Notes under the pieces: model-generated
Database searches by the model: none
What the model was told of the DNA's origin: nothing
What the model saw: the letters and a program-made list of their open reading frames with translations, nothing else
Program-made: the position numbers and the translations under genes
Shown: piece by piece, positions 915 through 16,128 of the stretch
How the letters are laid out: every line of letters begins with the position of its first letter
Position numbering within the stretch: the stretch's first letter is position 1
Virus record (IMG/VR): IMGVR_UViG_3300009159_000053
Span: 1 to 64,000 of that record
Origin: a virus
Reading direction: 5' to 3' (one strand)
Length of the DNA: 64,000 nucleotides

Positions 915-917
915 TAG

Positions 918-1088: not shown

Positions 1089-1104
1089 TTGATTCTCCGA
1101 TCAG

Positions 1105-1245: not shown

Positions 1246-1247
1246 GA

Positions 1248-1376
1248 CTACTCCTCAAACTCAGTTGGTGGTAAATTGCCCCAAGTTGGGTTTCTTGCAC
1301 CACACATCACGCAGGTTACTTGACCATCCATATCTAGATCAAATTCGCACTTAGTGGCGCAGTCATTAGTACTCAT
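1248..1376 (-). CDS. small Cys-containing protein (42 aa)
   Basis: Hand-translated MSTNDCATKC...CVMCG; TAGGGT 7 nt before ATG (leaderless-like). Confidence 0.45.
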   Translation of the reverse strand: MSTNDCATKCEFDLDMDGQVTCVMCGARNPTWGNLPPTEFEE

Positions 1377-1432
1377 GGGATAAACCCTATACCCTCTTGG
1401 CTACTGCTTTGGTTAGTACTGAGAAAAAATTA

Positions 1433-1588
1433 TTAGGGGCCTTCTTGGGCATCCTTAACTATCTGAGTTATCTGGTCAATGGTAGGGGCCGATAAATTTA
1501 GACCTTTGATACCCTTAAGTATCTCCTTGGCCATCTGCAGGCGTGTACTAGCCTTTATTTCATCAAATAGGTGTGAATGCTGTTCCAT
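1433..1588 (-). CDS. hypothetical protein (51 aa, MEQHSHLF...)
   Basis: 3' part of track ORF 1433..1747; TATAAT 6 nt before the ATG at 1588. Confidence 0.5.
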   Translation of the reverse strand: MEQHSHLFDEIKASTRLQMAKEILKGIKGLNLSAPTIDQITQIVKDAQEGP

Positions 1589-1605
1589 AGCCTTATTATA
1601 TATAG

Positions 1606-1681
1606 TGGAGCGGATGACGAGACTCGAACTCGCAACATCCACCTTGGCAAGGTGGTGCGCTACCAATTGCGCTACATCCGC
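1606..1681 (-). tRNA. trnG: tRNA-Gly (anticodon GCC)
   Basis: Minus strand GCGGATGTAGCGCAATTGGTAGCGCACCACCTTGCCAAGGTGGATGTTGCGAGTTCGAGTCTCGTCATCCGCTCCA: 76 nt cloverleaf, TTCGA T-loop, encoded CCA. Confidence 0.97.
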
Positions 1682-2070
1682 ATATACCCTCATCCTAGAC
1701 CTCTTTCGGCTACTGCTTTGGCCTAAACACGTCAACCATGTCTCCAACCTGGGGGGTCCCCTGTGCGCTGGCGTTTAATGGTGGGGGGGTCTTGGCAATT
1801 TATTAGTGTTAACAATCTCCCCTGACTATTAATCAGGTGCGATCTTGTTAACATGCGCTCAATAACTATGTGTTCCACATGGCTTGATGACTATTTGATG
1901 ACGGCATAACTAATTAGCGTTCGGCTACTGACTACGGCAACAGTTTGTTAATACGGATACCACCAGCCTATTAGCCAACTCTCCGAGTTGTTATCAGATC
2001 AATACATCATTAGTGCCTTATCTCCTTGTAATAGCCAGTTGATCAAACGCATACGCATCACTACATAGCC

Positions 2071-2150
2071 ACATGTTCCATGTAGCAATTAGTATCTCTT
2101 GGCATCACATAACTATTAACTATTAACTATTCATTAGACATGGAACATGT
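2071..2150. repeat. 13-bp perfect inverted repeat flanking (TAACTAT)x3
   Basis: ACATGTTCCATGT 2071-2083 / ACATGGAACATGT 2138-2150; tandem TAACTAT 2110-2130. Confidence 0.85.
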
Positions 2151-2267
2151 ATCTATCTATCTCTTATATATATCTCTCTTAGTTATTACTGGAAAAAAAT
2201 ACTTCGGGCGCAATTTCCCACATAACTAATTAACTAAACATCTCTCACAAGGCGCACACACTTAACT

Positions 2268-2300
2268 AACTAACTTGATGACCAACTCCCAAAGTTAGTT
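2268..2300. repeat. palindromic site AACTAACTT-N15-AAGTTAGTT (copy 1)
   Basis: Read directly; extra half-sites at 2304-2312 and ~2374-2381. Confidence 0.85.
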
Positions 2301-2354
2301 CGCAACTAACTTGCTTCCACCACCGCCACCGCCACCATGAGTAAGTTCGCAATT

Positions 2355-2370
2355 TCGAACGGGTGTTCGA
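2355..2370. promoter_or_regulatory. LexA (SOS) box, actinobacterial type
   Basis: TCGAAC-GGGT-GTTCGA, perfect match to TCGAAC-N4-GTTCGA. Confidence 0.75.
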
Positions 2371-2488
2371 GATAGTTAGTTCCAGCCCCAGTTCGCCAGT
2401 TAGCCCCCACGCTCAGGCTCTCAGGCTCAATCGGGCAAATCGGACATACCGCCACTCCTATCAGGTGATCAAGGTCAACTGGATTTTG

Positions 2489-2497
2489 TGCTAAAAT
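2489..2497 (+). promoter_or_regulatory. extended -10 promoter (TGcTAAAAT) of the plus-strand block
   Basis: TG-n-TAAAAT immediately upstream of the structured leader. Confidence 0.5.
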
Positions 2498-2504
2498 CGG
2501 CTCA

Positions 2505-2790
2505 GGCACACAACGATAAAAGTTTGATCTTTTTAGAAACCTCTAGGGGCAAAAGATCAATAATTTTCAAGTGAAAAAAGCCTAGATAGAGATTGAACTC
2601 TAGTGAACTTAATAAGTCATTAAATCCTTCGGGAACTTATTAAGGTGATAGCAAATCAATTAACTATTAATTACATAGAGAATTAGGCAAACATAATCAA
2701 TATGTTTTCTATTAATTAATCATGGATAGTTTTGTTAATAACAAATGCCGACAGTATCCAATCTGATCTAAGCACTAAGAAGTTAATTAA
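2505..2790 (+). ncRNA. candidate structured leader RNA
   Basis: Nested stems: AGGC/GCCT, TTGATCTTT/AAAGATCAA, TAGAG/CTCTA, CTTAATAAG/CTTATTAAG with TCC-TTCG-GGA, AAACATA/TATGTTT, GGATA/TATCC, TAGTG/CACTA. Confidence 0.5.
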
Positions 2791-2950
2791 TAATAAATAA
2801 AATAAACATATTGCTATATGTGTTTTCTGCTATTACTGGCAATAAATAATCTGCGAATTATCTTTACCAGTAATAGTGGTGAATACATAATGTATTCAAT
2901 ACAACTTAATATAGAACTTAATTCCTTCCCCCCAACAAAAGGAATAAGTA

Positions 2951-3133
2951 ATGAAAACAAATACATATATAGATACAAACGGAAATATCGTTGCTACTGG
3001 AACAATCTCAATTAACCAAATTGATCTCGTTCTATCTAATGGAACTCGGTTCTTTTCTACTCGTTCCGATAATTACACTCTTGATGTTTTGAAAAACTTA
3101 AACATCAACAAAATAGTCAAAGGACTAAAATAA
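2951..3133 (+). CDS. hypothetical protein
   Basis: ORF with AAGGAA RBS; first gene of the plus-strand block. Confidence 0.65.
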   Translation: MKTNTYIDTNGNIVATGTISINQIDLVLSNGTRFFSTRSDNYTLDVLKNLNINKIVKGLK

Positions 3134-3418
3134 ATGGAAAACAAAAAAATGATCATTAATGATCTAACTTATGATGAAGTTGCGTTATTACTTACATCAT
3201 TAAAAACCATGATAATAAAGATGAAGGAACTTGAAGCCCCTGAGTTCTTTATTGAAATGGCAATACCTTTGTTTGATCAGGTCGAGATTATTCTTGATGA
3301 AAAAGTGGCTGAACAAAAAGCGTTCATTGAATTGGTTAGCGACCAACTTGATGATGTTTTACTCGCTTCATCAATTATTGAAAAAGACCCTGATGTGGTA
3401 ATACCTGAATACAAATAA
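3134..3418 (+). CDS. hypothetical acidic protein
   Basis: ORF abutting the previous one; AGGA RBS. Confidence 0.7.
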   Translation: MENKKMIINDLTYDEVALLLTSLKTMIIKMKELEAPEFFIEMAIPLFDQVEIILDEKVAEQKAFIELVSDQLDDVLLASSIIEKDPDVVIPEYK

Positions 3419-3424
3419 ATAAGT

Positions 3425-3605
3425 TTGTGTTAGTAATAACCGATTAAATAGGTTCGGGCGGTTTTCTGAATATCAAATGGTTGCTATTTAATCATTTGAG
3501 TTTTGTTCCTTCATTTATGAACGACAACAGATTAGCCAATGTGTGCCTACATAGAACTCCATAATAGATAAAGAGATCGTCTTTATTCCGTTATTGCTAA
3601 CACAA
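3425..3605 (+). ncRNA. candidate structured RNA closed by a 24-bp terminal stem
   Basis: TTGTGTTAGTAATAACCGATTAAA (3425-3448) pairs with TTTATTCCGTTATTGCTAACACAA (3582-3605); internal hairpins TCAAATGGTT/AATCATTTGA and TTCA-TTTA-TGAA. Confidence 0.6.
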
Positions 3606-3657
3606 TTCAATTCCCCAGTAATACAAACCAAACCAACAAATAGAAACGGAAAACAAA

Positions 3658-4521
3658 ATGACTACAACAAATAACAAATCCTTCTTTGTTCCTTCGCTGG
3701 AACAAACTGGGCATTACATTGAACGATCTTTCGGTGGTGGTATTACCGAAACTCAGATGTATGACTATTCACTTGAAAACAAAATGAATGTGTTAATTGA
3801 AGGTGATGCTGGAACTGGTAAAACAACTTCCGCTATGGCTTACGCATCAAAACGCAAAATGAACTTCTTTGCCGTTCCTTCTAATAACGCACTTGATTTC
3901 ACACAATTAACTGGCGGTTTATTTCCTGATAGCAACGGCGAGTTAAAGTGGATTGACGGCGCAATTACAAAGATCGTTCGTGAAGGTGGCGTGTTATTAA
4001 TTAACGAATTAAATAACGCACCAAAAAATCTTTCACAATATCTAATGAGTTTATTAGATGATCGCCGATCAATTACATTGATGAGCCACGACAACGAAGT
4101 TATCCATGCTCACCCTGATTTATTAGTGGTTGCTGATATGAACCCTAATTATCGTGGAACTCAATTACTTAATGAAGCGTGGAAAGATCGCTTCGCAATT
4201 AAGTTAACTTACAACTACGACACAAAGATTGAAAAACAAATCCTTAGTTCAAGTTCATTACTGGAACTTGCTAATGGTATGCGTTCAACGCTTCGTGTTA
4301 GTGATGTTTCTAATTCATCAACCATATTTGAAACTCCAGTATCAACTCGTATCTTAAAAACATTCGAGAAACTTGCTAAGGGTCTTTCTTATGAGTTTGC
4401 TAGTGAAGTATTTGTTAATAACTTTGCTGATGATGAGAAGCCAGCAGTTCGTATGTTGCTAGAAGGTAGCGAATACAACATCAAATCCGATCTCGGATTA
4501 CTTGAAACAGTTAACGCTTAG
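3658..4521 (+). CDS. MoxR/CbbQ-NirQ-NorQ/CobS-like AAA+ ATPase
   Basis: Walker A GDAGTGKT, Walker B variant LLINE, MNPNYRGT, LNEAWKDRF, STR sensor. Confidence 0.9.
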   Translation: MTTTNNKSFFVPSLEQTGHYIERSFGGGITETQMYDYSLENKMNVLIEGDAGTGKTTSAMAYASKRKMNFFAVPSNNALDFTQLTGGLFPDSNGELKWIDGAITKIVREGGVLLINELNNAPKNLSQYLMSLLDDRRSITLMSHDNEVIHAHPDLLVVADMNPNYRGTQLLNEAWKDRFAIKLTYNYDTKIEKQILSSSSLLELANGMRSTLRVSDVSNSSTIFETPVSTRILKTFEKLAKGLSYEFASEVFVNNFADDEKPAVRMLLEGSEYNIKSDLGLLETVNA

Positions 4522-4535
4522 TTAGGAATAAATAA

Positions 4536-6416
4536 ATGGATTATCCATTCTTAGATTTAGATACGGCTTTAGCCCAATCTGATCTAAAAAATAAGCAGAA
4601 GCAAGAAGCGGAAATTAAACGCCAAAGAGTTGAACGATTTGCTCAATTCTTTGGCAGAGTTAATTCCGCATTAACACTTCGTAAGGTTGAAGTTAAAGTT
4701 GAACATGCGGATATAAACGCACCTGCTTGGTCAGGTGCTAGTCATGTTTGTTTTAACTCTCGATTACTTGGCAACTTAAATACAGCAAAAGAAATTGCTG
4801 GATTGCGTGGTCTTGATTTACACGAAGTTAGCCACATTCTTTATACACCAAGAGAAGGTTCTGAAATCTTTGAATGGTGTAGAGATAATGATTATTTATT
4901 TGCTTACAATGCGTTAGACGATCAACGAATTGAAACTTTATTTACAACTCGTTATCCGTCAACGATTGATTGGTTCACATCAACAATTCTTATTCACTTT
5001 GTTGATGACCCAAAAGCATTTGAAACTTCGTATGGCTTATTGCGTGGTCGGCAATATCTACCAACTGAATTGTTGGCACGATCACGCAACGCATATAAGT
5101 TCCAAGATCAATTAGATGAAATCTGCGAAATTGTTGACCAGTATCGTGTATTAATTTTTCCTGATGATACTGAATTAGCAAAAGATTTAATCAAACGATT
5201 TGATGCGTTAATGCCAAAACAAGAAGTTTCCCAAGACGGATTAGCGGATTGGGAAAAAGATTTACTTGGTAATGGTGGCAAGAAAGTTATGATCTCAATT
5301 AAATCTCCATTTGGTCATGGTGATAGACCGCATGAAGGTATAGAGAGTTCATCAACATCTCGCCCAGTTCCACCAATTCAACAAAAGCGTGATCGTGATA
5401 GGGCTAAAACAAAACCTATTAAAGATGATGCTAAATTGGCAGAACAATTAAAATCAGAACCAGTAATTGAAATTGATTTAACAGATCAAAATAAAAATAC
5501 TGGTAATGGTAAAACTGCTGGTAATCAAACTCCTGATGATCAATCTGCTTTATCAGATATGTTAAATAACATATTAGATAATCAACAGATTGCTAACGAG
5601 ATCAACGACATCATTAGACAAATTGGTGGCTTACCTTCTCTTGCTACTAATAATTCTAAAGAGCCACAAAAATCTCGGTATCATAATCAAACTCCTGATG
5701 CTAAAACTTTCCAAGCATCTCTATCTTTTAGTAGAGAGTTAGAAAGATTAAAAGCAACCTTTGACCCTGCTTGGAATAAATATCAATCACAGGGTCGCTT
5801 ACAGGCGCATAGATATATGCGTGGTGATGATTTAGATACGATCTTTGATCAATGGTCAGAAGGTCAAGATGATGCCACAGAGATCGAGTGCGTAATCCTT
5901 TTAGACAATTCAGGTTCAATGAGTGGCAGTAAAGAAACTTCTGCTTATCGGGCTATGTATGCGATTAAAAGAGCATTAGATCGCATTAACGCAAACACCA
6001 CAGTAATTACATTCAATACGCATACAAACATTTTGTATCGTGCTGATGAAAAAGCAACTGGTGTAATTCGTAATGCTGGCTCTCAGGGTGGAACTAATCC
6101 AACAGAAGCAATTACTTACGCAACTAAAATACTTGCTGAAACTGAAAAGCCAGTTCGTATTTTCTTTGCCATTACTGACGGAGAGTGGGAACATTATTCC
6201 GTTAGAGAAAATGATGAAGCAATTAAGAAACTAGGTAATGCTGGTGTATTAACTGCTTTTGCTTATATTGCTGATCAAGATGAATTAGTAAAACTTGATC
6301 AGGAAAAATCACACTATTGCGAAATTGGTGCGATTGTAAATAATCCCCTTAACTTAATTAGCATGGCTAAATCAATCGTGAAGTATGCGATTAGTCGGCG
6401 ATTAGTTAACGCATAA
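4536..6416 (+). CDS. VWA-domain protein with N-terminal HExxH motif (CobT-like MoxR partner)
   Basis: LHEVSH, NALDDQRIE; MIDAS DNSGSM, GGTNP, ITDG. Confidence 0.88.
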   Translation: MDYPFLDLDTALAQSDLKNKQKQEAEIKRQRVERFAQFFGRVNSALTLRKVEVKVEHADINAPAWSGASHVCFNSRLLGNLNTAKEIAGLRGLDLHEVSHILYTPREGSEIFEWCRDNDYLFAYNALDDQRIETLFTTRYPSTIDWFTSTILIHFVDDPKAFETSYGLLRGRQYLPTELLARSRNAYKFQDQLDEICEIVDQYRVLIFPDDTELAKDLIKRFDALMPKQEVSQDGLADWEKDLLGNGGKKVMISIKSPFGHGDRPHEGIESSSTSRPVPPIQQKRDRDRAKTKPIKDDAKLAEQLKSEPVIEIDLTDQNKNTGNGKTAGNQTPDDQSALSDMLNNILDNQQIANEINDIIRQIGGLPSLATNNSKEPQKSRYHNQTPDAKTFQASLSFSRELERLKATFDPAWNKYQSQGRLQAHRYMRGDDLDTIFDQWSEGQDDATEIECVILLDNSGSMSGSKETSAYRAMYAIKRALDRINANTTVITFNTHTNILYRADEKATGVIRNAGSQGGTNPTEAITYATKILAETEKPVRIFFAITDGEWEHYSVRENDEAIKKLGNAGVLTAFAYIADQDELVKLDQEKSHYCEIGAIVNNPLNLISMAKSIVKYAISRRLVNA

Positions 6417-6427
6417 CAAACAAATGT

Positions 6428-6459
6428 GGTGGAACATGGTCGGGGGGCTATGTTCCACC
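6428..6459 (+). other. intergenic 14-bp hairpin (terminator or processing site)
   Basis: GGTGGAACATGGTC-gggg-GGCTATGTTCCACC; no U-tract. Confidence 0.6.
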
Positions 6460-6483
6460 CTTCTAACTAAGGAGAATAAATAA

Positions 6484-7104
6484 ATGAAATCCGCAGAACT
6501 AAAAATAGGAACTAAATATGGCGTAATTCCAGCATGGGATTATTCATCAAGCGATAAGAAAAATCCTGATCGTGTTCAACGCAATCATGTTGCTAACGCA
6601 ACTCTTGTATCAACTGATAAATATGAATACAAAGTTTATAGATCAGATAAAAAAGATGATCAAAACTTTGCGCCAGCAAATAAAGGTTCTCGTAATGTTG
6701 GTTATTTAGTTTGTTCAGATGATTACATTCAATCAGGACAAGCATCAACAACTATCTTTTGGTTGGCTAGACCACAAGACATTGTTGCTGAATACGCAAC
6801 TCTTGAACCAAAGTGGGCGCAAAGAGAGCAACAAGAATTACTGGAACGCCAAAAGCAAGAAGCAGAACAGAAAGAGCGTGAACGCAAACAGCGTGAAGCA
6901 AGGGAATACCACGAAAGAGTTTCTGCTTCTTTAATCGCATCTCTTAAAACAATTCTTGGTGATCGTGCTAATCACATAACAGTTGACCAACGCAATCGCA
7001 GAGTTGGAGATAACTACATTGAAGTTTCAGAGATGAGTATTGATCTCAAAACTATGAGCATATTAATCGAGAAAGTTCTTGAAGCGAAAGATTTGGTGGG
7101 TTAA
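6484..7104 (+). CDS. hypothetical protein with coiled coil
   Basis: AAGGAG RBS; E/Q/R-rich helix. Confidence 0.75.
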   Translation: MKSAELKIGTKYGVIPAWDYSSSDKKNPDRVQRNHVANATLVSTDKYEYKVYRSDKKDDQNFAPANKGSRNVGYLVCSDDYIQSGQASTTIFWLARPQDIVAEYATLEPKWAQREQQELLERQKQEAEQKERERKQREAREYHERVSASLIASLKTILGDRANHITVDQRNRRVGDNYIEVSEMSIDLKTMSILIEKVLEAKDLVG

Positions 7105-7832
7105 TGACTACACAAACTAAAGATAGTTTTTATCTTGAACGATTAAAAACTAAGTTCAATAATAAAGACGGCTATTGGAGTGTTGGAGATACCAGCACTT
7201 CAATTTGGCAACCACACACTCGCAATAAGTTTGATGTATTAACTGAACAGAAGTTAATTGATATAACTTTTGATGAACAAACTTACAAAAGTTTTCAACT
7301 AATAATTGTTGGGTTTAATTATGAGTTCAGATCAGTTTTGGACTTAAATGGAAATACAACTGATAACTATTTGGCTGATAATGAAATTGGTGGATACGCA
7401 AATGATGTTAAATCTTTTGTTCACTACGAAGGTATTGCTTACGAAATCGGTGGCGTTGGCGATACACGACAAAACTTAAATTGGTTAGGTGAACTTGCCA
7501 CGCTTTATATTTATGGTGGTGATACTGACCCCAATAAAGTTATTAAAAAATGCCAAAAGAAATTAGATTTACTTTCACAAATTGTAGATGTGAGAGATGA
7601 ATTAATTTCTATTTCTAATGAAAGGATTGGTTCATACGATACAAAAAATCCATACAACATTAATGTTGGAGATCAGGTGTTTATTCAAGCGCATGGGCGT
7701 TTGCGTAAAGGCAAAATTGTATCCACAACTGGTAGCAGATTTAATGTTGCTTATCTAACTCCGTCAAACCATAGTGATCTTAAATATAAGACACTTAGAT
7801 TGGATTGTTTGTGGCTACCAATAAATCCGTAA
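7104..7832 (+). CDS. hypothetical protein with C-terminal SH3/Tudor-like motif
   Basis: TAATG coupling; INVGDQVFI...RKGKIVS...FNVAY. Confidence 0.7.
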   Translation: MTTQTKDSFYLERLKTKFNNKDGYWSVGDTSTSIWQPHTRNKFDVLTEQKLIDITFDEQTYKSFQLIIVGFNYEFRSVLDLNGNTTDNYLADNEIGGYANDVKSFVHYEGIAYEIGGVGDTRQNLNWLGELATLYIYGGDTDPNKVIKKCQKKLDLLSQIVDVRDELISISNERIGSYDTKNPYNINVGDQVFIQAHGRLRKGKIVSTTGSRFNVAYLTPSNHSDLKYKTLRLDCLWLPINP

Positions 7833-8422
7833 TTAAATTAAAACGAACTAAAGTGTGTATAGGTTGCTTTACTGCTCTACCACTTAATCGGTTTAATAAA
7901 CACATTGACGGAAAATACAAAGTTAGGGCAAGGTGTAAATCTTGCTTTGCCCTAATGCGTAAAGGTTCATCAACCCGCAAAGCAGAAAAATTAAACTTAC
8001 TTGCTAAGGGTAGAAGGCGTTGTAGTTATTGTCGCAAGATCAAATCACTATCTCGCTTTCAACCTAAATCACACGCAAGCGGTAATAAAGGCTATGAAGG
8101 GGCTTGTAAGCCTTGTGTGTCTATCAGACAAGCGGAAAAACACAAAACTAATCACAAAGAAGTAAGGGAGTTTGTATTTAATTATTTACTACAAAATCCT
8201 TGTATTGATTGTGGTGAAGGTAATGTGCTGGCTTTGGAGTTCGATCACTTACATAGTAAAAAGTTTAATATCGGAACTGCGCTTGGTAGCAACAAACTTT
8301 CTAAATTAATTAAATCAGAAATTAAAAAGTGCGTTGTTAGGTGTTCCAGTTGCCACCGAATTAAAACTCATCAAGAACAAAATAGTTGGAGATACCAATT
8401 ATTTTTAGAAAGGAGTAAATAA
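7805..8422 (+). CDS. HNH endonuclease with tandem N-terminal Zn-finger repeats
   Basis: CxxC pairs, then CIDCG...LEFDH...KKFNI...KCVVRCSSCHRIKT; paralogous to 546..914; start uncertain. Confidence 0.8.
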   Translation: MFVATNKSVIKLKRTKVCIGCFTALPLNRFNKHIDGKYKVRARCKSCFALMRKGSSTRKAEKLNLLAKGRRRCSYCRKIKSLSRFQPKSHASGNKGYEGACKPCVSIRQAEKHKTNHKEVREFVFNYLLQNPCIDCGEGNVLALEFDHLHSKKFNIGTALGSNKLSKLIKSEIKKCVVRCSSCHRIKTHQEQNSWRYQLFLERSK

Positions 8423-8581
8423 ATGAGATCAAAAACTTATTATCGAGTTCGAACTGCGGTTCGTATTCTTTTTTGGAGTGCGTTAGCAGTTGGGATTTAT
8501 TACTTAGCAACACATATTAACTGGGTCGGTGATCACTATTGCTTTGGCACTATTGATCAATGTTATTTAGGTGGTAAGTAA
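8423..8581 (+). CDS. small membrane protein (52 aa)
   Basis: Hand-translated MRSKTYYRVR...ILFWSALAVGIYYL; AAGGAG RBS. Confidence 0.6.
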   Translation: MRSKTYYRVRTAVRILFWSALAVGIYYLATHINWVGDHYCFGTIDQCYLGGK

Positions 8582-8758
8582 ATGGGTTATGTAGAAATTG
8601 TTAGACAAGTTCAAGATCACGAATTAGATTTATGTGATCAATGCGGTCAGCAAGGCGTTCGCAATAATGGCAAAACAATTACTGATAACTATTCTCAGGA
8701 CATTCTTTGGTTTTGCTATAACTGCGTAGAAACACAAAAGAGATCACTCTCTCGCTAA
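8582..8758 (+). CDS. small Zn-finger protein (58 aa)
   Basis: Hand-translated MGYVEIV...CDQC...WFCYNC. Confidence 0.6.
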   Translation: MGYVEIVRQVQDHELDLCDQCGQQGVRNNGKTITDNYSQDILWFCYNCVETQKRSLSR

Positions 8759-8767
8759 CTTAAAATT

Positions 8768-8907
8768 GTTGGGTAGGCGTTAACACAAGACCTTACTGGG
8801 GTTTTGTTTTCATTCCCCACTCCTTTCACTTGTGAAGGGCGGTCAAGACTTTTATTTCCTTAATTTGCTTTGGATAATAAAACGAGCCGTATCTGCGCCT
8901 ACTCAAC
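8768..8907 (+). ncRNA. candidate multi-branch structured RNA
   Basis: 12-bp closing stem GTTGGGTAGGCG/CGCCTACTCAAC; inner GACC/GGTC, TGGGG/CCCCA, CCTTTCA-CTTG-TGAAGGG, TTTTATT/AATAAAA. Confidence 0.6.
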
Positions 8908-8930
8908 TCCTAATAGAATTGGAGTAAGTA

Positions 8931-9089
8931 ATGTTTAATGAAAATGAAAAGAAAAAGATAGTTCACCAAAGAATTGCGTATCAAAAATCTTTATCCGAAG
9001 TTGCTCGTATGTTTGGAACTTCAAGAATACAGATTAGAAAGATAGAAACGGAATATCTAAATCAATTAAGGGAGAATAAAAATGGCTGA
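8931..9089 (+). CDS. small HTH protein (sigma region 4-like)
   Basis: Hand-translated ...KSLSEVARMFGTSRIQIRKIE; GGAG RBS. Confidence 0.6.
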   Translation: MFNENEKKKIVHQRIAYQKSLSEVARMFGTSRIQIRKIETEYLNQLRENKNG

Positions 9090-9282
9090 TGATTTACTTG
9101 ATGAAAGTTTATTTGATGAAGTGTTTAGCACCGAGCCTGAATGTAATTGTGAGTGCGGTTGTAAAGTTCCAGTATTAGGTCAATGCGTTGATTGCGGTGA
9201 TGATACTGGGCATCAAAATAACAATGGATTACCTAAATACGATTACTTGAACGAACTATTTACTACAAAGGAGAGCCAATGA
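9082..9282 (+). CDS. small Cys-rich acidic protein
   Basis: CNCECGC...CVDC. Confidence 0.65.
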   Translation: MADDLLDESLFDEVFSTEPECNCECGCKVPVLGQCVDCGDDTGHQNNNGLPKYDYLNELFTTKESQ

Positions 9283-9590
9283 ACCAAGAACAAATGGATT
9301 TAATTAAATCTATTAACTTTGCTAATGAGTTTATTAAAATTGTTCGTGGGTTTAAGTTAGATCAAGAACGGCAAGATAGTTTGCCACAAGAAGTAAAAGA
9401 GTATTTAGCCAACGAACACCTAAACAAATTAATTACAGATCAGGGATTAGAACCTGAAATGTTAGTTTGGGGCTTACTACACATGATTGAAATACTCTTA
9501 AATGTTGCTGAATTAGAACCTAATGATTTAGTTGAAATTATGGAGAAGTTTGTTGAACAAATATCTAATAGTAATGGAGATCAAACATGA
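9279..9590 (+). CDS. hypothetical protein
   Basis: ATGA-coupled ORF; AAGGAG RBS. Confidence 0.7.
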   Translation: MNQEQMDLIKSINFANEFIKIVRGFKLDQERQDSLPQEVKEYLANEHLNKLITDQGLEPEMLVWGLLHMIEILLNVAELEPNDLVEIMEKFVEQISNSNGDQT

Positions 9591-9910
9591 CTAGACCTAA
9601 AAGCCAAGTGTCTTTTACTAAAGCAAGAAAAGTAGTAAAACCAGTTGAATTAACCACACCTACTCCACAAGATATTGATGATGCGCCATGCCAAACAGTT
9701 GACCCTGAAATCTTTTTTCCTGATCCAACTGATGTAATTGGTATTAAAAAAGCCAAAACTTTTTGTGGTAATTGCGATCAAGCAATTAAAACTAAATGTT
9801 TATCTTTCGCATTATCTAACAAAGTTAGATATGGCGTATGGGGTGGATTAACTGAGATTGAACGCCAAAGTTTGCTTCGCAAACAATATAGGAGTGGTAT
9901 CAATGGTTAA
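9587..9910 (+). CDS. whiB: WhiB-family Fe-S transcription factor
   Basis: C-QTVDPEIFFP...AKTFCGNC...CLSFAL...GVWGGLTEIER. Confidence 0.92.
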   Translation: MTRPKSQVSFTKARKVVKPVELTTPTPQDIDDAPCQTVDPEIFFPDPTDVIGIKKAKTFCGNCDQAIKTKCLSFALSNKVRYGVWGGLTEIERQSLLRKQYRSGING

Positions 9911-10373
9911 TACTTTTATTCCTTATCCTGACTTTGTTAAGTCTGCTAAGGCTCTTGATTACAGGCGATTAGGTAAGCAACGAGTTGAAGCGTGGCAAAT
10001 ACTTAGGGCGTTAATGGGTATTAGTCAGGGCTGGCGTAATCACCCTGCTACAAAGATGTGGCGTGGGCATGAGAAGGCTTTGTGTGAATACGGAATTGCG
10101 ATCTGCCAAGAGTGGATAGATCGTGGCTACAAAGATACTTTGTTGCCCAGTTTTGTAGCAATACACCCAACCTTCCCTGATACTGGATTACCTTTTTGGT
10201 TTGGTAATTCAGAACTTCATAATTCGCATCAAAGTAATCTAAATCGTAAAGATAATACTTATTATCAATTTAATGTGCCAGTAGATTTACCTTATCTATG
10301 GGCTGATACGGAAACTAAAACTACAAAGTGGGGAACTAAACCTAATGAAACTAAGCAGAAAGTTAAAAGATAA
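9903..10373 (+). CDS. pyrimidine-dimer DNA glycosylase / endonuclease V-like (MSMEG_6728 family)
   Basis: TFIPYPDF...LDYRRLGKQRVEA.QIL...WRNHPA..MW.G...SHQSNL.RK; start moved to ATG 9903. Confidence 0.85.
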   Translation: MVNTFIPYPDFVKSAKALDYRRLGKQRVEAWQILRALMGISQGWRNHPATKMWRGHEKALCEYGIAICQEWIDRGYKDTLLPSFVAIHPTFPDTGLPFWFGNSELHNSHQSNLNRKDNTYYQFNVPVDLPYLWADTETKTTKWGTKPNETKQKVKR

Positions 10374-10375
10374 AC

Positions 10376-10564
10376 ATGAGCGAATGGCTAACAAATACAG
10401 ACATAGCAAAACTAACTGGATTAAAGATCGAAACTCTACACAGTTATCTAAATCGCAACACCCTTCCCAAACCCGACAAATACATGGGGAGAACACCAGT
10501 TTGGTTAACAACAACCATAAAACAATGGGCATCAGAGAGAGAATTGGAGATTGAAAATGAATAA
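10376..10564 (+). CDS. AlpA/excisionase-like winged-HTH protein
   Basis: LTNTDIAKLTGLKIETL..Y..RNTLPKPD..GRTPVW. Confidence 0.8.
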   Translation: MSEWLTNTDIAKLTGLKIETLHSYLNRNTLPKPDKYMGRTPVWLTTTIKQWASERELEIENE

Positions 10565-10718
10565 AGATCAAGCAATTACTGAATTGTTAAATCTACGCCA
10601 GTTGTGGGAATTAGAACAACAAAATACAGAAGCAGACGGCAATTCAGATTACGCAACCTATACAGGTGCTATCAACGCTATTGATGTTGCTATTAAAATT
10701 GTAAAGGAGATCAAGTAA
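10557..10718 (+). CDS. hypothetical protein (53 aa)
   Basis: Hand-translated MNKDQAITELL...; fills the gap and overlaps both neighbours. Confidence 0.55.
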   Translation: MNKDQAITELLNLRQLWELEQQNTEADGNSDYATYTGAINAIDVAIKIVKEIK

Positions 10719-11254
10719 TGGGTTTAGATATGTATTTGTATGCTGAAAAATATATTGGTAGCGGTGCTGATAAAACTGGTTCTTATACCAAAATTAAAAA
10801 TCTTGCTGGATTAAAAGATTTACCAACTCCTGATTTTTCTGCTTTAATTGTTAAATCAATGGTTGGTTATTGGCGCAAAGCAAACTCTATTCATGGCTGG
10901 ATTGTTGATAAGTGTGGAGAAGGCGTTGATAAGTGCCAAGTAATTTATTTAAGTGATGAAGATTTATTACAATTAAAAAATGATTGTATTAAGGCTTTGG
11001 CTAATCCTAGTCGTGAATATCAGATAGAAAACCAAAAAGTTTTTTATCAATTATGCGATTACTTAAATAGTTTAGAAACTGAATTAACTCCTGATACTTT
11101 TCAAAATCCACTTCCACCAGTTGACGGATTTTTCTTTGGTGGTAGTGATCTGACCGATCATTACTATTACCAACTGGAATACACGATTGATTTAATTACT
11201 TCCCTATTAGAGAGCGATCACGAATTAGGATTTAGTTATCAAGCCAGTTGGTAG
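10718..11254 (+). CDS. conserved phage protein (MGLDMY...YWRKAN...YQASW family)
   Basis: Motifs MGLDMYL, YWRKANSIHGW, GFFFG, YQASW. Confidence 0.8.
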   Translation: MGLDMYLYAEKYIGSGADKTGSYTKIKNLAGLKDLPTPDFSALIVKSMVGYWRKANSIHGWIVDKCGEGVDKCQVIYLSDEDLLQLKNDCIKALANPSREYQIENQKVFYQLCDYLNSLETELTPDTFQNPLPPVDGFFFGGSDLTDHYYYQLEYTIDLITSLLESDHELGFSYQASW

Positions 11255-11258
11255 ATTG

Positions 11259-11334
11259 AACTAACTTTATTTAATTCCAGAAAAGTTAGTTCACGCTCAA
11301 TAACTAACTTGTCTGGTGTTCCACCAAGTTAGTT
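11259..11334. repeat. tandem pair of AACTAACTT-N15-AAGTTAGTT sites (copies 2 and 3)
   Basis: 11259-11291 and 11302-11334; perfect arms with different 15-bp cores. Confidence 0.9.
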
Positions 11335-11374
11335 CCAAGCCTGACCGCCTAATTCCCTATGTAGCCGATAGTTC

Positions 11375-11411
11375 AGCCCTTAGTCCGATTTGGATTAGGG
11401 GCTTATCTTTT
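11375..11411 (+). terminator. probable intrinsic terminator of the early operon
   Basis: AGCCCTTAGTCC-gattt-GGATTAGGGGCT followed by TATCTTTT. Confidence 0.6.
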
Positions 11412-11422
11412 GATTAAGAACC

Positions 11423-11478
11423 TACTCACCAGTAGTATTACTCGCCAGTAGAAGGGTCATTACTCGCCAGTAGAAGGG
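11423..11478. repeat. direct repeats upstream of the recombinase (arm-type or operator candidates)
   Basis: ATTACTCGCCAGTAGAAGGG at 11437-11456 and 11459-11478; TACTCACCAGTAG at 11423-11435. Confidence 0.85.
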
Positions 11479-11485
11479 GCAACTT

Positions 11486-12823
11486 ATGGCGTATGTGATT
11501 AAACGCAACGGCAGATTTACAGGCTATTACAGGCTTCAAAATCGCCGTTTATCGGCTGGCACATGGGCTAATGAAACCGAAGCCATGTATCACGCCATAC
11601 AAGCCGAGAAGCAGGGCTTAAAAGCCCCCTCAAAGGCTAATTTAAGGGTGGTTGATTTTGTAGATCAATGGCTGGCGGTGGCTGATCTAATGCCGATCAC
11701 AAAAAAGGGCTATAAGTCGGTCTTAACTAGATTTGTAATTCCAGTTATAGGAGATCGAGAACTAACTTCCCTGAAGCCTTCAGACCTAGTTAAGTTAATT
11801 GATGATCTCAAACTATCGGGAGTTAGACCTGCCACCTTAAATCAGGTGAAGGCTTCTCTTGGCTCAATGTTTTCAAAGTTGGTTAATGCTGGTCAATTAG
11901 AGAGCAATCCGACACATGGAATTAAGATCAAGGTCAATCATGCCAATATATCTAATCTCCTAGACCCTGATGAGTTTAAGGAGATCATTAAGCATTTACC
12001 GACACAAGGAACTAAATTATTCGCCCAATTCTTAGTAGCAAGTGGGTGTCGGTTTGGTGAAGCAACGGAAGTAAGAGCAAAAGACATTAATTTCAAAACT
12101 GGCGAAATCTTTATTCAAAGGCGAGTTAGTGATCTAGGAACAAATTACAACAATGGAACTAGGTTCATGGTGATAGATGCCACCAAGTCAGGGCATAAGA
12201 GAAGCCTAGTAATAGGAAAAGCCCTATTACAGCAGTTAAATGCGTATGTCCTAGCAAAAGGCATAGCAAAAGATGATCTGATGTTTCCAAGAACAATACT
12301 CTTAACGGAAGGTAAACTTAAAGGTTCACGAAGCGCAAAGCCCTCTCGACCATTCGAGAAAGGCGGAAAACAGTTCCAGCATGGAACTCTTTACTCCTAT
12401 ACACATGGGGGTTGTAGATGCGAAGGGTGTAGGCAAGCAGTAGCAAACTACCGCAAAGCCAAAGCCCAAGCAGAAGCACTAGCAGAAGCAGAGCAGGTAA
12501 GAAGCCGAAGCCGTAAGGCAAAGCAGAAGCATCAGCAGAAGCACAAGCAAGGGAGTTTCATCAACAATATGAGCCACATGCCTCGTGATGTATGGAGAAC
12601 AACTTGGAACAAAGCAATAGCCAAGTCCGCAATCGGCTGGTCGCCTAGAACTCATGATTTACGACATGCAAACGCTACGCAGTTGTTAAAGAACGGCATA
12701 GATGTCCATGAAGTAAAAGAGCGATTAGGACACCAATCGATCAAGACGACAGAGCGGTATTTACACCGCCTTCGTTCACACCAGTCAAAGGCATCTGAAA
12801 GTGCCAACGACTATTTGGAGTGA
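11486..12823 (+). CDS. int: tyrosine recombinase/integrase with an internal Zn-finger insertion
   Basis: GCRFGE (R), TKS (K), HDLRH, LGH, TTERY (Y); N-terminal arm- and core-binding domains. Confidence 0.93.
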   Translation: MAYVIKRNGRFTGYYRLQNRRLSAGTWANETEAMYHAIQAEKQGLKAPSKANLRVVDFVDQWLAVADLMPITKKGYKSVLTRFVIPVIGDRELTSLKPSDLVKLIDDLKLSGVRPATLNQVKASLGSMFSKLVNAGQLESNPTHGIKIKVNHANISNLLDPDEFKEIIKHLPTQGTKLFAQFLVASGCRFGEATEVRAKDINFKTGEIFIQRRVSDLGTNYNNGTRFMVIDATKSGHKRSLVIGKALLQQLNAYVLAKGIAKDDLMFPRTILLTEGKLKGSRSAKPSRPFEKGGKQFQHGTLYSYTHGGCRCEGCRQAVANYRKAKAQAEALAEAEQVRSRSRKAKQKHQQKHKQGSFINNMSHMPRDVWRTTWNKAIAKSAIGWSPRTHDLRHANATQLLKNGIDVHEVKERLGHQSIKTTERYLHRLRSHQSKASESANDYLE

Positions 12824-13425
12824 TGATGAAAACAAACGCAAGAATAAGAGCCGAGCAGATGCCAAAGGCAATAGCCAAAGCATCAGCAAAAGCCCAAGCA
12901 AGACTAAAGGCTTTAATACTTGGTGGGTCAATTTCGACCTTAGCCGTAGCATTTGGAGTAGCAACTACATCAGATGCCATAGCACCAACAAGAGCCGAAG
13001 CACTAATAGTTAGCGAAACAACAAACGAAGCAACCTTAAAGAAGTATGAAAATACTCATAAGTTAACCGATCTTGAATTGGTTGAGTTGCTTCATGCCGT
13101 AGGCTTTACAGGCACAGACCTGAAAGAAGCATGGGCAGTTGCTAAGAAAGAAAGTAATGGGCGACCCCTCGCTCACAATCCTAATACAAACACAGGTGAT
13201 AACTCGTGGGGCATGTTTCAAATAAACATGATCGGAGAGTTAGGCAAAGATCGTAGAGAAAAATTTGGTTTAGAAAATAATGCCGAATTGCTCAACCCTG
13301 TGGTTAATGCAAAGATCGCTTACTACATGAGTAGAGGCGGTAAAGATTGGAGTTCTTGGCATGGACTTACTCCAAAGACTAAGCAGTTAATGGAACAGTT
13401 CCCAGCAAAGAACGCAAAGCAATAG
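12820..13425 (+). CDS. membrane-anchored or secreted lysozyme-like transglycosylase
   Basis: Hydrophobic N-terminal segment; KKESNG, SWGMFQINM, LLNPVVNAKIAY, DWSSW. Confidence 0.85.
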   Translation: MMMKTNARIRAEQMPKAIAKASAKAQARLKALILGGSISTLAVAFGVATTSDAIAPTRAEALIVSETTNEATLKKYENTHKLTDLELVELLHAVGFTGTDLKEAWAVAKKESNGRPLAHNPNTNTGDNSWGMFQINMIGELGKDRREKFGLENNAELLNPVVNAKIAYYMSRGGKDWSSWHGLTPKTKQLMEQFPAKNAKQ

Positions 13426-13482
13426 CAGAAGCCATAGCAGAAGCATAAGCAAGCAAAGCAATAGGAGAAGCAATAGGAGAAG
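13414..13482 (+). repeat. AGCA-rich repeat tract (CAAAGCAATAG[C/G]AGAAG units)
   Basis: GCAAAGCAATAGCAGAAG at 13414-13431 is identical to 13898-13915; variants at 13454 and 13467. Confidence 0.85.
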
Positions 13483-13504
13483 CCCCATCAGAGATGGTGG
13501 GGCT
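13481..13504 (+). terminator. GNRA-capped hairpin, possible terminator
   Basis: AGCCCCATCA-GAGA-TGGTGGGGCT. Confidence 0.45.
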
Positions 13505-13511
13505 ATCTTAA

Positions 13512-13553
13512 AACTAACTTACCTGGCAGCCAGGAGAAGTTAGTCAGTTAGTT
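13512..13553. repeat. AACTAACTT-N16-AAGTTAGTC site (copy 4) plus an extra half-site
   Basis: 13512-13545, followed by AGTTAGTT at 13546-13553. Confidence 0.75.
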
Positions 13554-13563
13554 AGGGGCAATC

Positions 13564-13890
13564 ATGGGAGAACACTCTTTCGTAGATCGTTATATAGAAT
13601 TAGATAAGCAATACATACAGCATAAGCAAGAACAATATAAACATTACAAAGAACCTAATCTGCCTTACACCGAAAAATTGTTTTGGGATAAATTAATTCA
13701 TTTAGGTTGGAGAAAAGATTACACAACAACAGAGTGTTTAGTATTAGTTTGCTCTGTTTGTGAAGGAGCCATAACAAAGGTAGTTCTTAAAAATAATGTA
13801 AATATTAGACCTTTATTAAATATTGAAGATAAAGTAGAAATTCACAAGACAGCATATTGCAAAGCAACAGCAAAGCAGAGCAAAGCATAA
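13564..13890 (+). CDS. hypothetical protein with CxxC...HxxxxC
   Basis: Last ORF of the plus-strand block; GGGG RBS. Confidence 0.65.
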   Translation: MGEHSFVDRYIELDKQYIQHKQEQYKHYKEPNLPYTEKLFWDKLIHLGWRKDYTTTECLVLVCSVCEGAITKVVLKNNVNIRPLLNIEDKVEIHKTAYCKATAKQSKA

Positions 13891-13916
13891 GCAAAAGGCA
13901 AAGCAATAGCAGAAGG

Positions 13917-15950
13917 CTATTGATTATCTTTAATTAGCCTAACTTCGCAGGCATCGGTTGTACAGTAAGCCTCACCAATAGCATCAGCAGCCATACCAGC
14001 ATAAACTCCTGACAAATCAATTGGAAATAATTTCATAGTTCCTTCTGATTCATATTCTTCAGCAGTGATTTGAGTGTAAGGCATTTGAGGATAGGTAGCA
14101 TTACCAGAAGGTAAGAAGGATACGGTTTTAAGTTGACCATCATACATATGCAAAGCCGTACCAATAGCCGAGGCTTCGGTCTCAGGATTAAAACTAATAG
14201 TCACACTTACAGAGTTGTCTGACCAATACCTTTGTGCAGTTGCAGCAAGAGCCATCTTTTCGTAAATGCTTACGTCTTTTTCAGAACGTCTAGCATTAGA
14301 TTTGATTGGGAAAAATACAACAGAAGTAGTATTTGGAGATTCACTTGCTGGTTCTACTCTGTAGTTAGCCATCTTAAACAAAGGCAACATTGGATCAGAG
14401 TTTGCAAACCGAATAGCACGATTAAAGTACTCTCCGCCTACAGTCCAGTGAACGCCAGGTGATTCACCTGCCAAGATGCTAACTGTTCCACTTGGCTTCA
14501 CGGTAGTCATCTTGATTGACTCACGAATACCAAGCCATTCAGAATAAGTGGTGTCGTAGGTCTTGATTACTTTGTATCCTTCATCCATCCACTGACGGAG
14601 TATTGGTAATCCTTTTCTATCTGCAAAGTTAGCCACTCCTGAAACAGAAGTTCCAATGCGCCGATTTCTTTGCATTATGGCGTTTGTTTCTTCCCAGTGC
14701 GTAGGGATAAGGGTTACCGTCTTAGCGTATAGATAAGCAAACTTTAGAGTTCTTTTAAAATCTTCTATATCGTCGTGGCGATTTAGATAGGTCTCTACTA
14801 AAGTACAGCATTCAAAAGATTCAAGAGATTGTTCTGCACAGGGGTTATATCCTGCAATGCGCCAATCTTTATTATTAATTGGATCAATGAGACGACCATA
14901 TTGTTTCGAGATATCCATCCAAACAACTCCTGGCTCTCCGTTACGAGCAATGCCGTCAATAATGTTATCTAAATTATCTCCAACATTTACCGATACAGAG
15001 TTGTTGGACATCCAAGCCCATCCTGGTTTTTCTGGATTGTAAGAGTTTCTTTCTGGAAATTTTTCTGCGTTCTTTAAATTTAAGAAATCTTCATCATCAA
15101 TTCGACCAATAAGTAACTCAGCAGACCGCCGAACATTACCAGATACAACACAAACCCCAATAAGGTTCCCAATATCAGCAATATCAATGCGGGTAAGTTT
15201 CTCACCAGCACGTTCTTTGAAGATTCCATCGATGTAATTATGTAACTTAATGAGCGGTTCTGGACCTGCTGCTGTTCCACCAAATGTCTTGATGGGTTCG
15301 CCTGCCTTGCGAATTTCTGCATAATCAAACCTAGGACGTTTTGAGTCTGATCGTAGGTAAGAGTTAATAAGCGTGGCCGTTGACTCGACCCAGCCTTCTC
15401 TGGTATCTGGAATGACATATATTTCCCCCTCCTGCGGTTTGTAAATCGTAAAGTCTTTGTCGGCACCCTTATCGTCGAACCCAACTCCAACACCAAGCAT
15501 ACTAGCCTCCATTAAAAACGCAAAAGGCTTTGCTGGATCGGTCTTAGTCATTGAGCCAGTCGATACAAACGCACAGTTTTGTAAGGCTGCTGAGTTACGT
15601 TTTTCATTTACAAGCGGAGTACCCATAACCCAAAGACCCCTACCTGGTGGTGTCCACTTTAAGTTCCACAAACGGTCGAAAGCCTCTTTGGCTGAGGCGG
15701 CTGCTTTAGCATCTGACCAAGGTAAGCGGTTTGTTTTAGCGTGGTCTTTTTGTAAAGAATACATACCGTTGATTACTCTCTCACAAACGTCAACCCAAGT
15801 TTCTTTAGTACCATCTGCTTTAAGTCGTGAATAGGTCCTAAGAAAAGTTATTTCACCAACGGAATTACCAGCGGCATCTTGATATCCGAAGGGAGCCTTT
15901 AAACTCTTATATGGTGTAACAAACTCTTCGGCTAACTTAAAAGAAAACAT
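13917..15950 (-). CDS. nrdJ: class II (adenosylcobalamin-dependent, monomeric RTPR-type) ribonucleotide reductase
   Basis: RTYSR, PPGRGLW, NC, GNVRRSA, NPCAEQ, TTVKPSGT, C-terminal CxxDxC. Confidence 0.95.
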   Translation of the reverse strand: MFSFKLAEEFVTPYKSLKAPFGYQDAAGNSVGEITFLRTYSRLKADGTKETWVDVCERVINGMYSLQKDHAKTNRLPWSDAKAAASAKEAFDRLWNLKWTPPGRGLWVMGTPLVNEKRNSAALQNCAFVSTGSMTKTDPAKPFAFLMEASMLGVGVGFDDKGADKDFTIYKPQEGEIYVIPDTREGWVESTATLINSYLRSDSKRPRFDYAEIRKAGEPIKTFGGTAAGPEPLIKLHNYIDGIFKERAGEKLTRIDIADIGNLIGVCVVSGNVRRSAELLIGRIDDEDFLNLKNAEKFPERNSYNPEKPGWAWMSNNSVSVNVGDNLDNIIDGIARNGEPGVVWMDISKQYGRLIDPINNKDWRIAGYNPCAEQSLESFECCTLVETYLNRHDDIEDFKRTLKFAYLYAKTVTLIPTHWEETNAIMQRNRRIGTSVSGVANFADRKGLPILRQWMDEGYKVIKTYDTTYSEWLGIRESIKMTTVKPSGTVSILAGESPGVHWTVGGEYFNRAIRFANSDPMLPLFKMANYRVEPASESPNTTSVVFFPIKSNARRSEKDVSIYEKMALAATAQRYWSDNSVSVTISFNPETEASAIGTALHMYDGQLKTVSFLPSGNATYPQMPYTQITAEEYESEGTMKLFPIDLSGVYAGMAADAIGEAYCTTDACEVRLIKDNQ

Positions 15951-16112: not shown

Positions 16113-16128
16113 TACTGTTATCAGATAA

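Follow-up and report, generated by a model that had tools for sequence, protein, structure and literature searches.

According to the account given in PMC10644984, bacteriophages T5 and BF23 are restricted only via sites in their first-step-transfer DNA, and the means by which T5-like phages shield their second-entering DNA are treated as unsolved there and in PMC8594841. For Murciavirus, PMC12455610 describes that only motifs in the first-injected region matter and that selection is concentrated on that segment, adding that avoidance of this kind would not matter with headful packaging; the same text cites the leading regions of conjugative plasmids, which are the first DNA in, are poor in restriction targets and carry anti-defence genes. 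Here we describe a block of about 12 kb that has lost many restriction-type words, located near the start of a 64,000-nucleotide stretch of viral DNA (the window, i.e., bases 1-64000 of IMG/VR record IMGVR_UViG_3300009159_000053). The record is an 86,892-bp linear viral contig (G000) that is 87% complete by CheckV and has no end repeats. Rather than a separate element or an undescribed mobile system, this block constitutes the shorter, rightward arm of a phage genome with two arms, and it may be the part of the genome that enters the host cell first.

The defining feature of the block is a restriction-site desert. Between positions 1750 and 13915, the words ACGT, GGCC and GTAC are entirely absent (23.2, 23.9 and 25.1 copies expected, respectively) and TGCA occurs three times (51.3 expected); in the rest of the genome, ACGT, GGCC, GTAC and TGCA occur 181, 62, 308 and 473 times, respectively. 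An earlier sequence-only reading of the window had reported the loss of GTAC, TGCA and ACGT, and the loss proved to be far stronger: a blind scan of all words of 4 to 6 letters, carried out in both G000 and a complete relative, G001, found 7 tetramers, 18 pentamer pairs and CAATTG to be depleted by at least 80% in the blocks of both genomes. No copies were observed in the block for GANTC (24.6 expected), GTNAC (32.6), CASTG (11.2), GGATG (9.2), GTCTC (7.6), AGATCT (7.6) and CAATTG (9.4), and nearly none for GCNGC (1 observed, 17.3 expected), CCWGG (2 and 15.7), CCATC (2 and 19.0), GAAGA (2 and 31.4) and GGATC (1 and 15.4). The depleted words are mostly palindromes, which we take to be classic targets of type II or IIS restriction enzymes. 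Since GCATC, GGTGA, ACTGG, CCGC, TCNGA, CTNAG, GATC, TTAA and AATT are undepleted in the block, the loss of sites is word-specific and not compositional.

Outside the block, the depleted words occur near expectation with the exception of AGCT, CCGG and CGCG, which are missing from the whole of G000 (approximately 280, 85 and 79 copies expected, respectively) and also from G001. The genome-wide sets of missing words differ in other lineages of the clade, some of which, for example, lack GATC or TCGA and contain AGCT. GATC, which is unavoided here, with a density in the block roughly double that outside it (6.3 vs 2.9 per kb), is entirely missing from some of those lineages.

As a non-circular control, words depleted by at least 90% were counted per 12.2-kb window. 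The G000 block contains 7 such words among 136 tetramers, 13 among 446 pentamers and 3 among 779 hexamers, and the corresponding counts in ten other G000 windows are 2-3, 0 and 0-1. For G001, the block yields 7, 15 and 3 depleted tetramers, pentamers and hexamers, vs 3, 0-1 and 0 in 12 windows. At the left edge of the desert, the last ACGT is located at 1729, a further site at 1740 and the last CCWGG at 1748; at the right edge, the first sites after the block fall at 13952-13960, with the first GTAC at 13960. The feature starts at approximately 1749 and not at 1400, where the sequence-only reading had placed its beginning. Residual sites within the block are found mostly in the spacers of dyad sites (described below) and in its last 1.3 kb. 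The opposite gene orientation that had been noted for this interval is real: plus-strand open reading frames (ORFs) span approximately 2818/2951-13890 between minus-strand genes on either side, and all other sizeable ORFs in the window are on the minus strand.

Among relatives, sixteen contigs encode the VWA protein of the block at 81-98% identity; in every contig long enough to show them, the block is collinear, has one orientation and is bordered by the same flanks, and the desert for ACGT, GGCC and GTAC is kept in all these relatives. A comparison of the presence and orientation of the block among relatives had been proposed as a check, and it gave the same place and the same orientation in every relative examined. 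The blocks of G000, L002, L004, L005 and L015 have been purged of TGCA, which is present at 5 to 17 block sites in L007-L010 and L016, strains that are 95-98% identical; this difference looks like the recent gain or loss of one selective pressure. In the complete relative G001 (95,505 bp), whose block has 70-82% nucleotide identity to that of G000, the block is the only desert; the ends of this genome overlap by 123 bp inside the reductase gene, giving a circular assembly. Strain-specific indels of 1.2-1.8 kb occur at both block borders (~1690-1730 and ~13915-13920), namely inserts of 1.6 kb in L007, 1.8 kb in L009 and L013, and 1.2 kb in L010. Since restriction-site density is normal in these inserts, they belong to the outside of the block.

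A profile of the TGT/DpdA-like protein encoded in the long leftward arm reached 139 relatives, of which 80 were kept. Block-side flank of 4 kb or more was available for 41 loci, and in 20 of these it includes a stretch of at least 2 kb free of ACGT, GTAC and GGCC. Counts of absent G/C-containing palindromic tetramers were compared by window for 23 loci: on the block side they increase by at least two in 18 loci and by one in 2 loci, with no increase in 3; both the baseline and the block-specific sets of absent words are lineage-dependent. The integrase, lysozyme-like, Xis-like and WhiB genes are kept across the lineages of the clade (the integrase in 28 of 29 loci). The undescribed mobile system suggested by the sequence-only reading gives way to a genome arm whose gene content is maintained in a clade comprising 139 relatives. 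Persistence of the desert over 20-30% sequence divergence supports the view that it is probably under continuing selection across the relatives.

By the large terminase (53.5% identity to that of Streptomyces phage BRock), the closest cultured phages are Streptomyces phages, and their records offer a guide to where the DNA of the present phage may end. The BRock record has an identical 221 bp at its start and end, directly followed by a plus-strand block (gp1-27, 869-12128) and then by minus-strand genes. Matches to BRock were obtained for 39 of 135 ORFs, which are collinear and all located on the long arm. The BRock gene labelled 'queuine tRNA-ribosyltransferase' (gp36) lies at 16036-17538 and its counterpart here at 16129-17634; the far end of BRock has a tRNA cluster and an HNH gene, and here an HNH gene and a tRNA are found just left of the block. 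Phage LuckySocke has the mirror-image layout with a 344-bp terminal repeat. An annotated ArdA-like anti-restriction gene is located in LuckySocke (OR725497.1, 101870-102541) approximately 1 kb from the border of its end block, and no counterpart of this gene was found in the window. A literature search found no paper on BRock itself.

The terminal repeats of BRock and LuckySocke have two motifs in common: GGT[G/A]GGGGG, which begins at repeat position 32, and GGCTACTG, which begins 44 nt from the end of the repeat. In the present genome, a strongly conserved non-coding element between the divergent arms (Table 1) contains GGCTACTG at 1708 and 1923 and the genome-unique GGTGGGGGG at 1780. The distance from GGTGGGGGG to the following GGCTACTG is 143 nt in G000, vs 146 nt in BRock, and the same motif layout, with a spacing of 135-144 nt, is found in five genomes of the clade (G000, G001, G006, G007 and G008). 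The first motif, GGT[G/A]GGGGG, is unique in G000 and in G001, and the composite pattern occurs once in three of five distant complete or near-complete genomes and never in a reversed control. For G000, counting 31 nt back from the motif leads to 1749; each of the five genomes has a CCWGG at the predicted end-point minus 1, the next CCWGG follows only 11.8-14.3 kb onward, and the lineage-specific deserts begin at the same point. A further GGCTACTG precedes the predicted end by 41-42 nt in each of these five genomes. At both edges of the predicted repeat (1700-1750 and 1915-1966), GGCTACTG is followed by CCA[A/C]C approximately 35 nt later, and these two edges may be the two terminase cutting sites; the upstream copy of GGCTACTG is missing in BRock.

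Our preferred reading, which we hold with moderate confidence, is that the block is a first-entering early arm working like the first-step-transfer DNA of T5 and BF23. The proposed mechanism includes the following steps: (i) the ends of the virion DNA would be fixed and carry a short terminal repeat, placed by prediction at ~1749-1965; (ii) the 12-kb arm would begin at the predicted end, be read inward and stop at ~13.9 kb, at a two-way terminator that separates it from the oncoming 83-kb leftward arm; (iii) the end carrying the arm would enter the cell first and be transcribed by the host polymerase while host restriction enzymes are active, and selection would then remove the words cut by these enzymes from this arm only; and (iv) candidate products of the arm would protect the remaining DNA or let it in, and owing to this protection the remaining DNA would keep the words at normal frequency. 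The words AGCT, CCGG and CGCG, missing genome-wide, would be targets of enzymes outside that protection. A purge that is confined to the arm, kept over divergence and composed of lineage-specific word sets fits restriction acting on first-exposed DNA. A more specific version of the proposal is tentative, and we would give it rather less than an even chance: that DNA entry in this contractile-tailed clade is ordered, pausing or resuming in a second step once the first 12 kb is inside, and that generic protection encoded by the arm shields the remaining 83 kb from approximately 20 type II-like enzymes. Candidates for such protection are the conserved pair of MoxR-like ATPase and VWA protein and the proteins of no assigned family.

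Several points weigh against the preferred reading. No ORF of the block matches BRock, and BRock is devoid of a desert (0 of 135, 0 of 492 and 2 of 810 words depleted) despite sharing the layout, thus sharing this layout is not enough to yield a desert. When the BRock repeat alone is aligned locally to positions 1650-2100, the result is not significant (score 31; mean of 21.7 and maximum of 39 in shuffles, and up to 36 in other windows), so homology of the predicted end rests on two short motifs and their spacing, and the exact composite pattern is missing from two of the five distant genomes. Circular closing of the assemblies leaves room for circular permutation. Pfam and PHROG scans and an Atlas search found no known anti-restriction family in the arm. 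Its integrase, WhiB, repair and Xis-like genes are not what a host-takeover set usually contains, and for DNA that needs immediate expression, repression of the first operon by LexA would be odd. Finally, to our knowledge, two-step or slow entry has not been described for contractile-tailed phages.

The main rival explanation, which we regard as unlikely, is patchy modification: the long arm would be base-modified in the virion, for example with 7-deazaguanine inserted by the TGT/DpdA-like enzyme, and the early arm, left unmodified for reading by the host, would avoid restriction sites irrespective of entry order. The 501-aa TGT/DpdA-like protein matches PHROG 887 'queuine tRNA-ribosyltransferase' (E 2.4e-56) and also BRock gp36, which bears the same label; in the account of PMC8594841, Queuovirinae are resistant to both type I and type II systems. 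G/C is part of every depleted word, AATT and TTAA being untouched, and a generic form of protection is needed for the approximately 20 words that the long arm keeps at normal frequency; modification is the best-known kind. Nevertheless, neither Pfam nor PDB gave a match to the protein, which leaves PHROG 887 and the BRock label as the basis of its assignment, and a Pfam scan of ten neighbours of its gene, which is not an exhaustive search of the genome, identified DUF7178 only and no preQ0-synthesis gene. BRock has the same gene and no desert, and modification offers no reason for the exact coincidence of the desert's start with the predicted DNA end. We also know of no mechanism that would spare one 12-kb arm.

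Avoidance of the words for a reason other than restriction seems improbable to us. It could reflect the phage's own nucleases acting against host DNA early in infection, in line with the HNH endonucleases encoded at 546-914 and 7805-8422, or constraints on early transcripts, in line with the coincidence of the purge with one transcription arm. The palindromic nature of most depleted words, presumably classic type II/IIS targets, speaks for restriction, and because palindromes are strand-symmetric, RNA constraints are unlikely to explain their loss. The word sets moreover differ between close lineages, as seen for TGCA in strains that are 95-98% identical, which fits changing host enzyme repertoires.

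It is very improbable that the whole 12-kb block is a T5-like long terminal repeat, present at both genome ends and collapsed by assembly. Its length resembles the ~10-kb repeats of T5 and BF23 as given in PMC10644984, and contigs of several relatives break near the borders. Depth was taken at the contig level in the likely source run, which holds 99% of the block's words: the contig covering 1637-15036 has a depth of 24.6, and the flanking contigs have 26.6, 25.9 and 23.2. A collapsed terminal repeat of ~12 kb is expected to show nearly twofold depth, as the sequence-only reading had itself pointed out, and the flat profile therefore indicates that the block is not such a repeat. The repeats of the cultured relatives are only 221 and 344 bp long, and the tRNA together with the 1.2-1.8 kb strain indels at both borders accounts for the contig breaks. 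The earlier model had combined a long terminal repeat or first-injected segment with ends defined by motifs; the first-injected segment persists as the proposal favoured here, and neither the long repeat nor the end-defining role of those motifs holds.

The other model of the sequence-only reading, a recombinase-controlled invertible or excisable cassette, or a satellite resident in the phage, bounded by the dyads, deserves almost no credence: it could draw on the integrase and Xis-like gene inside the block and on the dyads near both ends, but orientation, place and flanks are identical in all relatives covering the site, the gene set including int is conserved across the clade (28 of 29 loci), the dyad spacers of 14-15 bp are mutually unrelated and hence provide no matched crossover region, the 15 joints listed, of 25 in all, for contigs of four runs, which can miss rare forms, include no joint of block ends and have skips of at most 586 bp, Pfam and PHROG scans of the block ORFs gave no replication or capsid genes of its own, and one scan of bacterial genomes for close relatives gave no copy.

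Table 1. Features of the arm and its borders (positions in the window; aa, amino acids)
Feature	Position	Strand	Basis or remarks
tRNA-Gly (GCC)	1606..1681	-	ARAGORN; Rfam RF00005, 71.5 bits; first gene of leftward arm, outside desert
Strongly conserved non-coding element between divergent arms	1704..2015		Alignment of 7 genomes including the 81% relative
Restriction-site desert	1749..13950		Word counts, edges, control windows
Predicted short direct terminal repeat	1749..1965		Left end ~1749 (plus or minus 10); predicted from repeat motifs
Dyad site 1	2268..2300		Arms conserved, spacer wholly different between lineages
LexA box, actinobacterial type	2355..2370		Perfect TCGAACGGGTGTTCGA, unique in 86.9 kb
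Two small first ORFs of arm	2951..3418	+	Include acidic 94-aa protein
Acidic 94-aa protein	3134-3418	+	pI 4.2, net charge -12, no known family
AAA_5 (MoxR/CobS-like) ATPase	3658-4521	+	Pfam and PHROGs
VWA (CobT-like) protein	4536-6416	+	Pfam and PHROGs
Two proteins of no assigned family	6484-7104, 7104-7832	+	Pfam/PHROGs scans
HNH endonuclease	7805-8422	+	Pfam/PHROGs scans
Second LexA-like box	8449..8464		11/12 arm positions; also weak terminator-like hairpin
Conserved structured non-coding element	8765..8910	+	Fold z-score -4.3; no Rfam family
Second operon of arm	8931..11254	+	
Sigma70_r4-like HTH protein	8931-9089	+	Small acidic proteins also in second operon
WhiB	9587-9910	+	
Pyrimidine-dimer glycosylase	9858-10373	+	
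HTH_17/Xis-like protein	10376-10564	+	Weak HTH_17/AlpA-like matches, E 9e-4 to 3e-3
178-aa protein of no assigned family	10718-11254	+	
Dyad sites 2 and 3	11259-11291, 11302-11334		
Strong terminator-like hairpin	11375..11403	+	13 pairs, then T-run
Two 19-bp direct repeats just upstream of int	11438..11478	+	Read from sequence
Tyrosine integrase	11486-12823	+	Pfam PF00589, E 3.3e-23; PHROG 1
AGCA-rich, strand-polar low-complexity field	12430..13915	+	Contains most CAAAGCARTAGC copies
SLT_3 lysozyme-like protein	12820..13425	+	Family scan
Dyad site 4	13512..13545		Conserved spacer hairpin holds block's only CCWGG copies
Last arm gene, no assigned family	13564..13890	+	Pfam/PHROGs scans
Terminator-like hairpin	13904..13922		Scores on both strands; arm convergence point, right desert edge

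G000 probably represents a linear, approximately 95-kb, contractile-tailed phage of a freshwater actinobacterium. Virion genes encode a tail sheath, a baseplate, the large terminase, a portal and a major head protein, and replication genes encode DNA polymerase A, helicases, a primase and ribonucleotide reductase. The WhiB gene and the actinobacterial-type LexA box point to an actinobacterium as the probable host. At least half of the block's sampled words are present in 20 sequencing runs from 11 studies, labelled as freshwater, lake-water, unspecified 'metagenome' (1 run) and marine (1 run). Screening 50,697 phage records for near-identity to the block matched only the tRNA-Gly, in Corynebacterium phages.

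Within the arm, the acidic 94-aa protein was considered as a DNA mimic and set aside, since the Atlas search returned unnamed viral clusters only. A consensus promoter scan gave 22 matches vs 39.8 in shuffles and taught nothing about early promoters. The HNH genes at 546-914 and 7805-8422 belong to the same PHROG family (2255), one per arm; the far genome ends of BRock and LuckySocke also have an HNH gene. GTAC is very dense at ~70000-74000 of G000 (35-41 per 2 kb vs ~6 elsewhere), where a 918-aa collagen-like tail-fibre gene with repeated segments is located.

The sequence-only reading had noted paired sites near both ends of the block and beside int, and these were confirmed as a dyad, AACTAACTT-N14/15-AAGTTAGT(T), at 2268, 11259, 11302 and 13512 with 0 expected. 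A fifth dyad inside int, at 11760-11800, is degenerate here and perfect in four relatives. The dyads of relatives occupy the same positions with conserved arms, and of 80 loci in the wider clade, 30 have a dyad, in each case on the side of the block; none was found in the rest of G000, the rest of G001, or BRock. Conserved arms, fixed spacing and the freely varying spacers of site 1 fit binding of a dimeric protein, and the dyads are most likely operators for a regulator encoded in the arm. Candidate binders are the sigma70_r4-like, HTH_17 and WhiB proteins; co-occurrence of dyad and genes could not single out one of them, because these regulators are found in nearly all lineages. The spacers of sites 3 and 4 add inner hairpins, and since the spacer of site 4 is conserved and keeps otherwise purged words, a structural role is also possible.

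A LexA box had been proposed before the first promoter, and it was found as a perfect match, unique in the genome, between AACTAACTT (2304) and its inverted copy (2373-2381). It lies upstream of the first operon and agrees with the actinobacterial consensus tCGAAC-N4-GNNCGa given in PMC9380542. The box is kept in 6 of 9 relatives covering the site and missing from L010, L015 and L016, and it probably links the first operon to the SOS state of the host in most strains; the consensus scan gave no convincing promoter.

Two further claims stood in part. The motif CAAAGCARTAGC, proposed as a signal in opposite orientation at the two flanks, is enriched (9 matches vs 0.97 expected), mostly as a component of the AGCA-rich field: 7 of the 9 copies are in or near this field, which extends through coding DNA, namely the integrase insert, the start of the lysozyme-like gene and two 3' ends. 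As a boundary signal it was rejected, since its flank copies are not kept in G001, the 81%-identity relative. Among three suggested structured RNAs, one conserved element at ~8765-8910 remains, with compensatory changes in 5 of 43 pairs (10 distinct sequences); the tRNA-Gly lies outside the desert and the remaining candidates are dyads. At a permissive threshold, Rfam gave the tRNA and two chance microRNA-like matches on dyads only.

The recombinase noted earlier is indeed encoded in the block: the C-terminal HxLRH...LGH...Y region of the tyrosine integrase aligns to the XerC-like 4a8e, and together with its weakly matched Xis-like HTH partner it may constitute an integration module of the temperate-phage type. 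The 19-bp direct repeats upstream of int are possibly arm-type or regulatory sites. An insert between the two Pfam catalytic-domain stretches of the integrase (12300-12570) is of low complexity, is rich in Ala, Lys and Gln and uses the same AGCA-rich words as the adjoining non-coding DNA. An integrase scan of 185,579 species genomes, by a method that finds close relatives only, gave 209 pattern matches, none of which was confirmed.

If such ordered delivery with arm-encoded protection is real, deserts of this kind could reveal the physical end, the entry order and the host enzyme repertoire of uncultured phages from sequence, and a second, unrelated and very abundant phage group would appear to use a T5-like strategy. 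The proposal makes testable (i) ordered entry outside sipho- and podoviruses, (ii) which early genes provide broad anti-restriction, and (iii) whether, in uncultured phages, the positions of the genome ends and the restriction repertoires of the hosts can be predicted from deserts. A literature search of limited scope found no paper describing such deserts in actinophages.

Among known systems, the conjugative leading regions differ in that plasmid DNA enters single-stranded by conjugation. In the Streptomyces phages BRock and LuckySocke, a short terminal repeat, an inward-reading block of ~10-12 kb and a long opposite arm with a TGT/DpdA-like gene, replication, tail and head genes, tRNAs and a far-end HNH gene recur as here, where the repeat is a predicted one, whereas BRock has no block gene in common with the present phage, no desert and no dyads, and its GC content is 52% vs 35-40% here. 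The T7-like Murciavirus (Autographiviridae), as portrayed in PMC12455610, has early genes read inward from the entering end, as proposed here; it differs in that a single type I motif is concerned, in small podoviruses with all genes in one direction, and here many type II-like words are affected. In the present phage, the long arm is read in the direction of the block, so its entry could not be driven by transcription.

The closest parallel is provided by T5 and BF23, in which, according to PMC10644984 and PMC8594841, a segment of comparable size (~10-12 kb) occupies one fixed genome end, predicted in the present case, and the border between the segment and the remaining genome is repeat-rich. 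Their segment is part of a ~10-kb terminal repeat, whereas depth is flat here and the predicted repeat is only ~215 bp; T5 is a siphovirus, whereas the present phage has a sheath and a baseplate. Pfam and PHROG matches of 20 block ORFs (2951-13890; the ORF at 2818-3015 was outside the scan) include no T5 pre-early function, A1, A2 and dmp not having been searched by name. The likeness in entry order is proposed on the basis of sequence, and the purge here spans about two dozen words. As in T5 and BF23, the targets are selectively absent from the segment and present elsewhere in the genome, and the signature is much sharper here; the desert begins where a conserved end motif predicts the DNA end, and the layout is found again in cultured relatives from Streptomyces.

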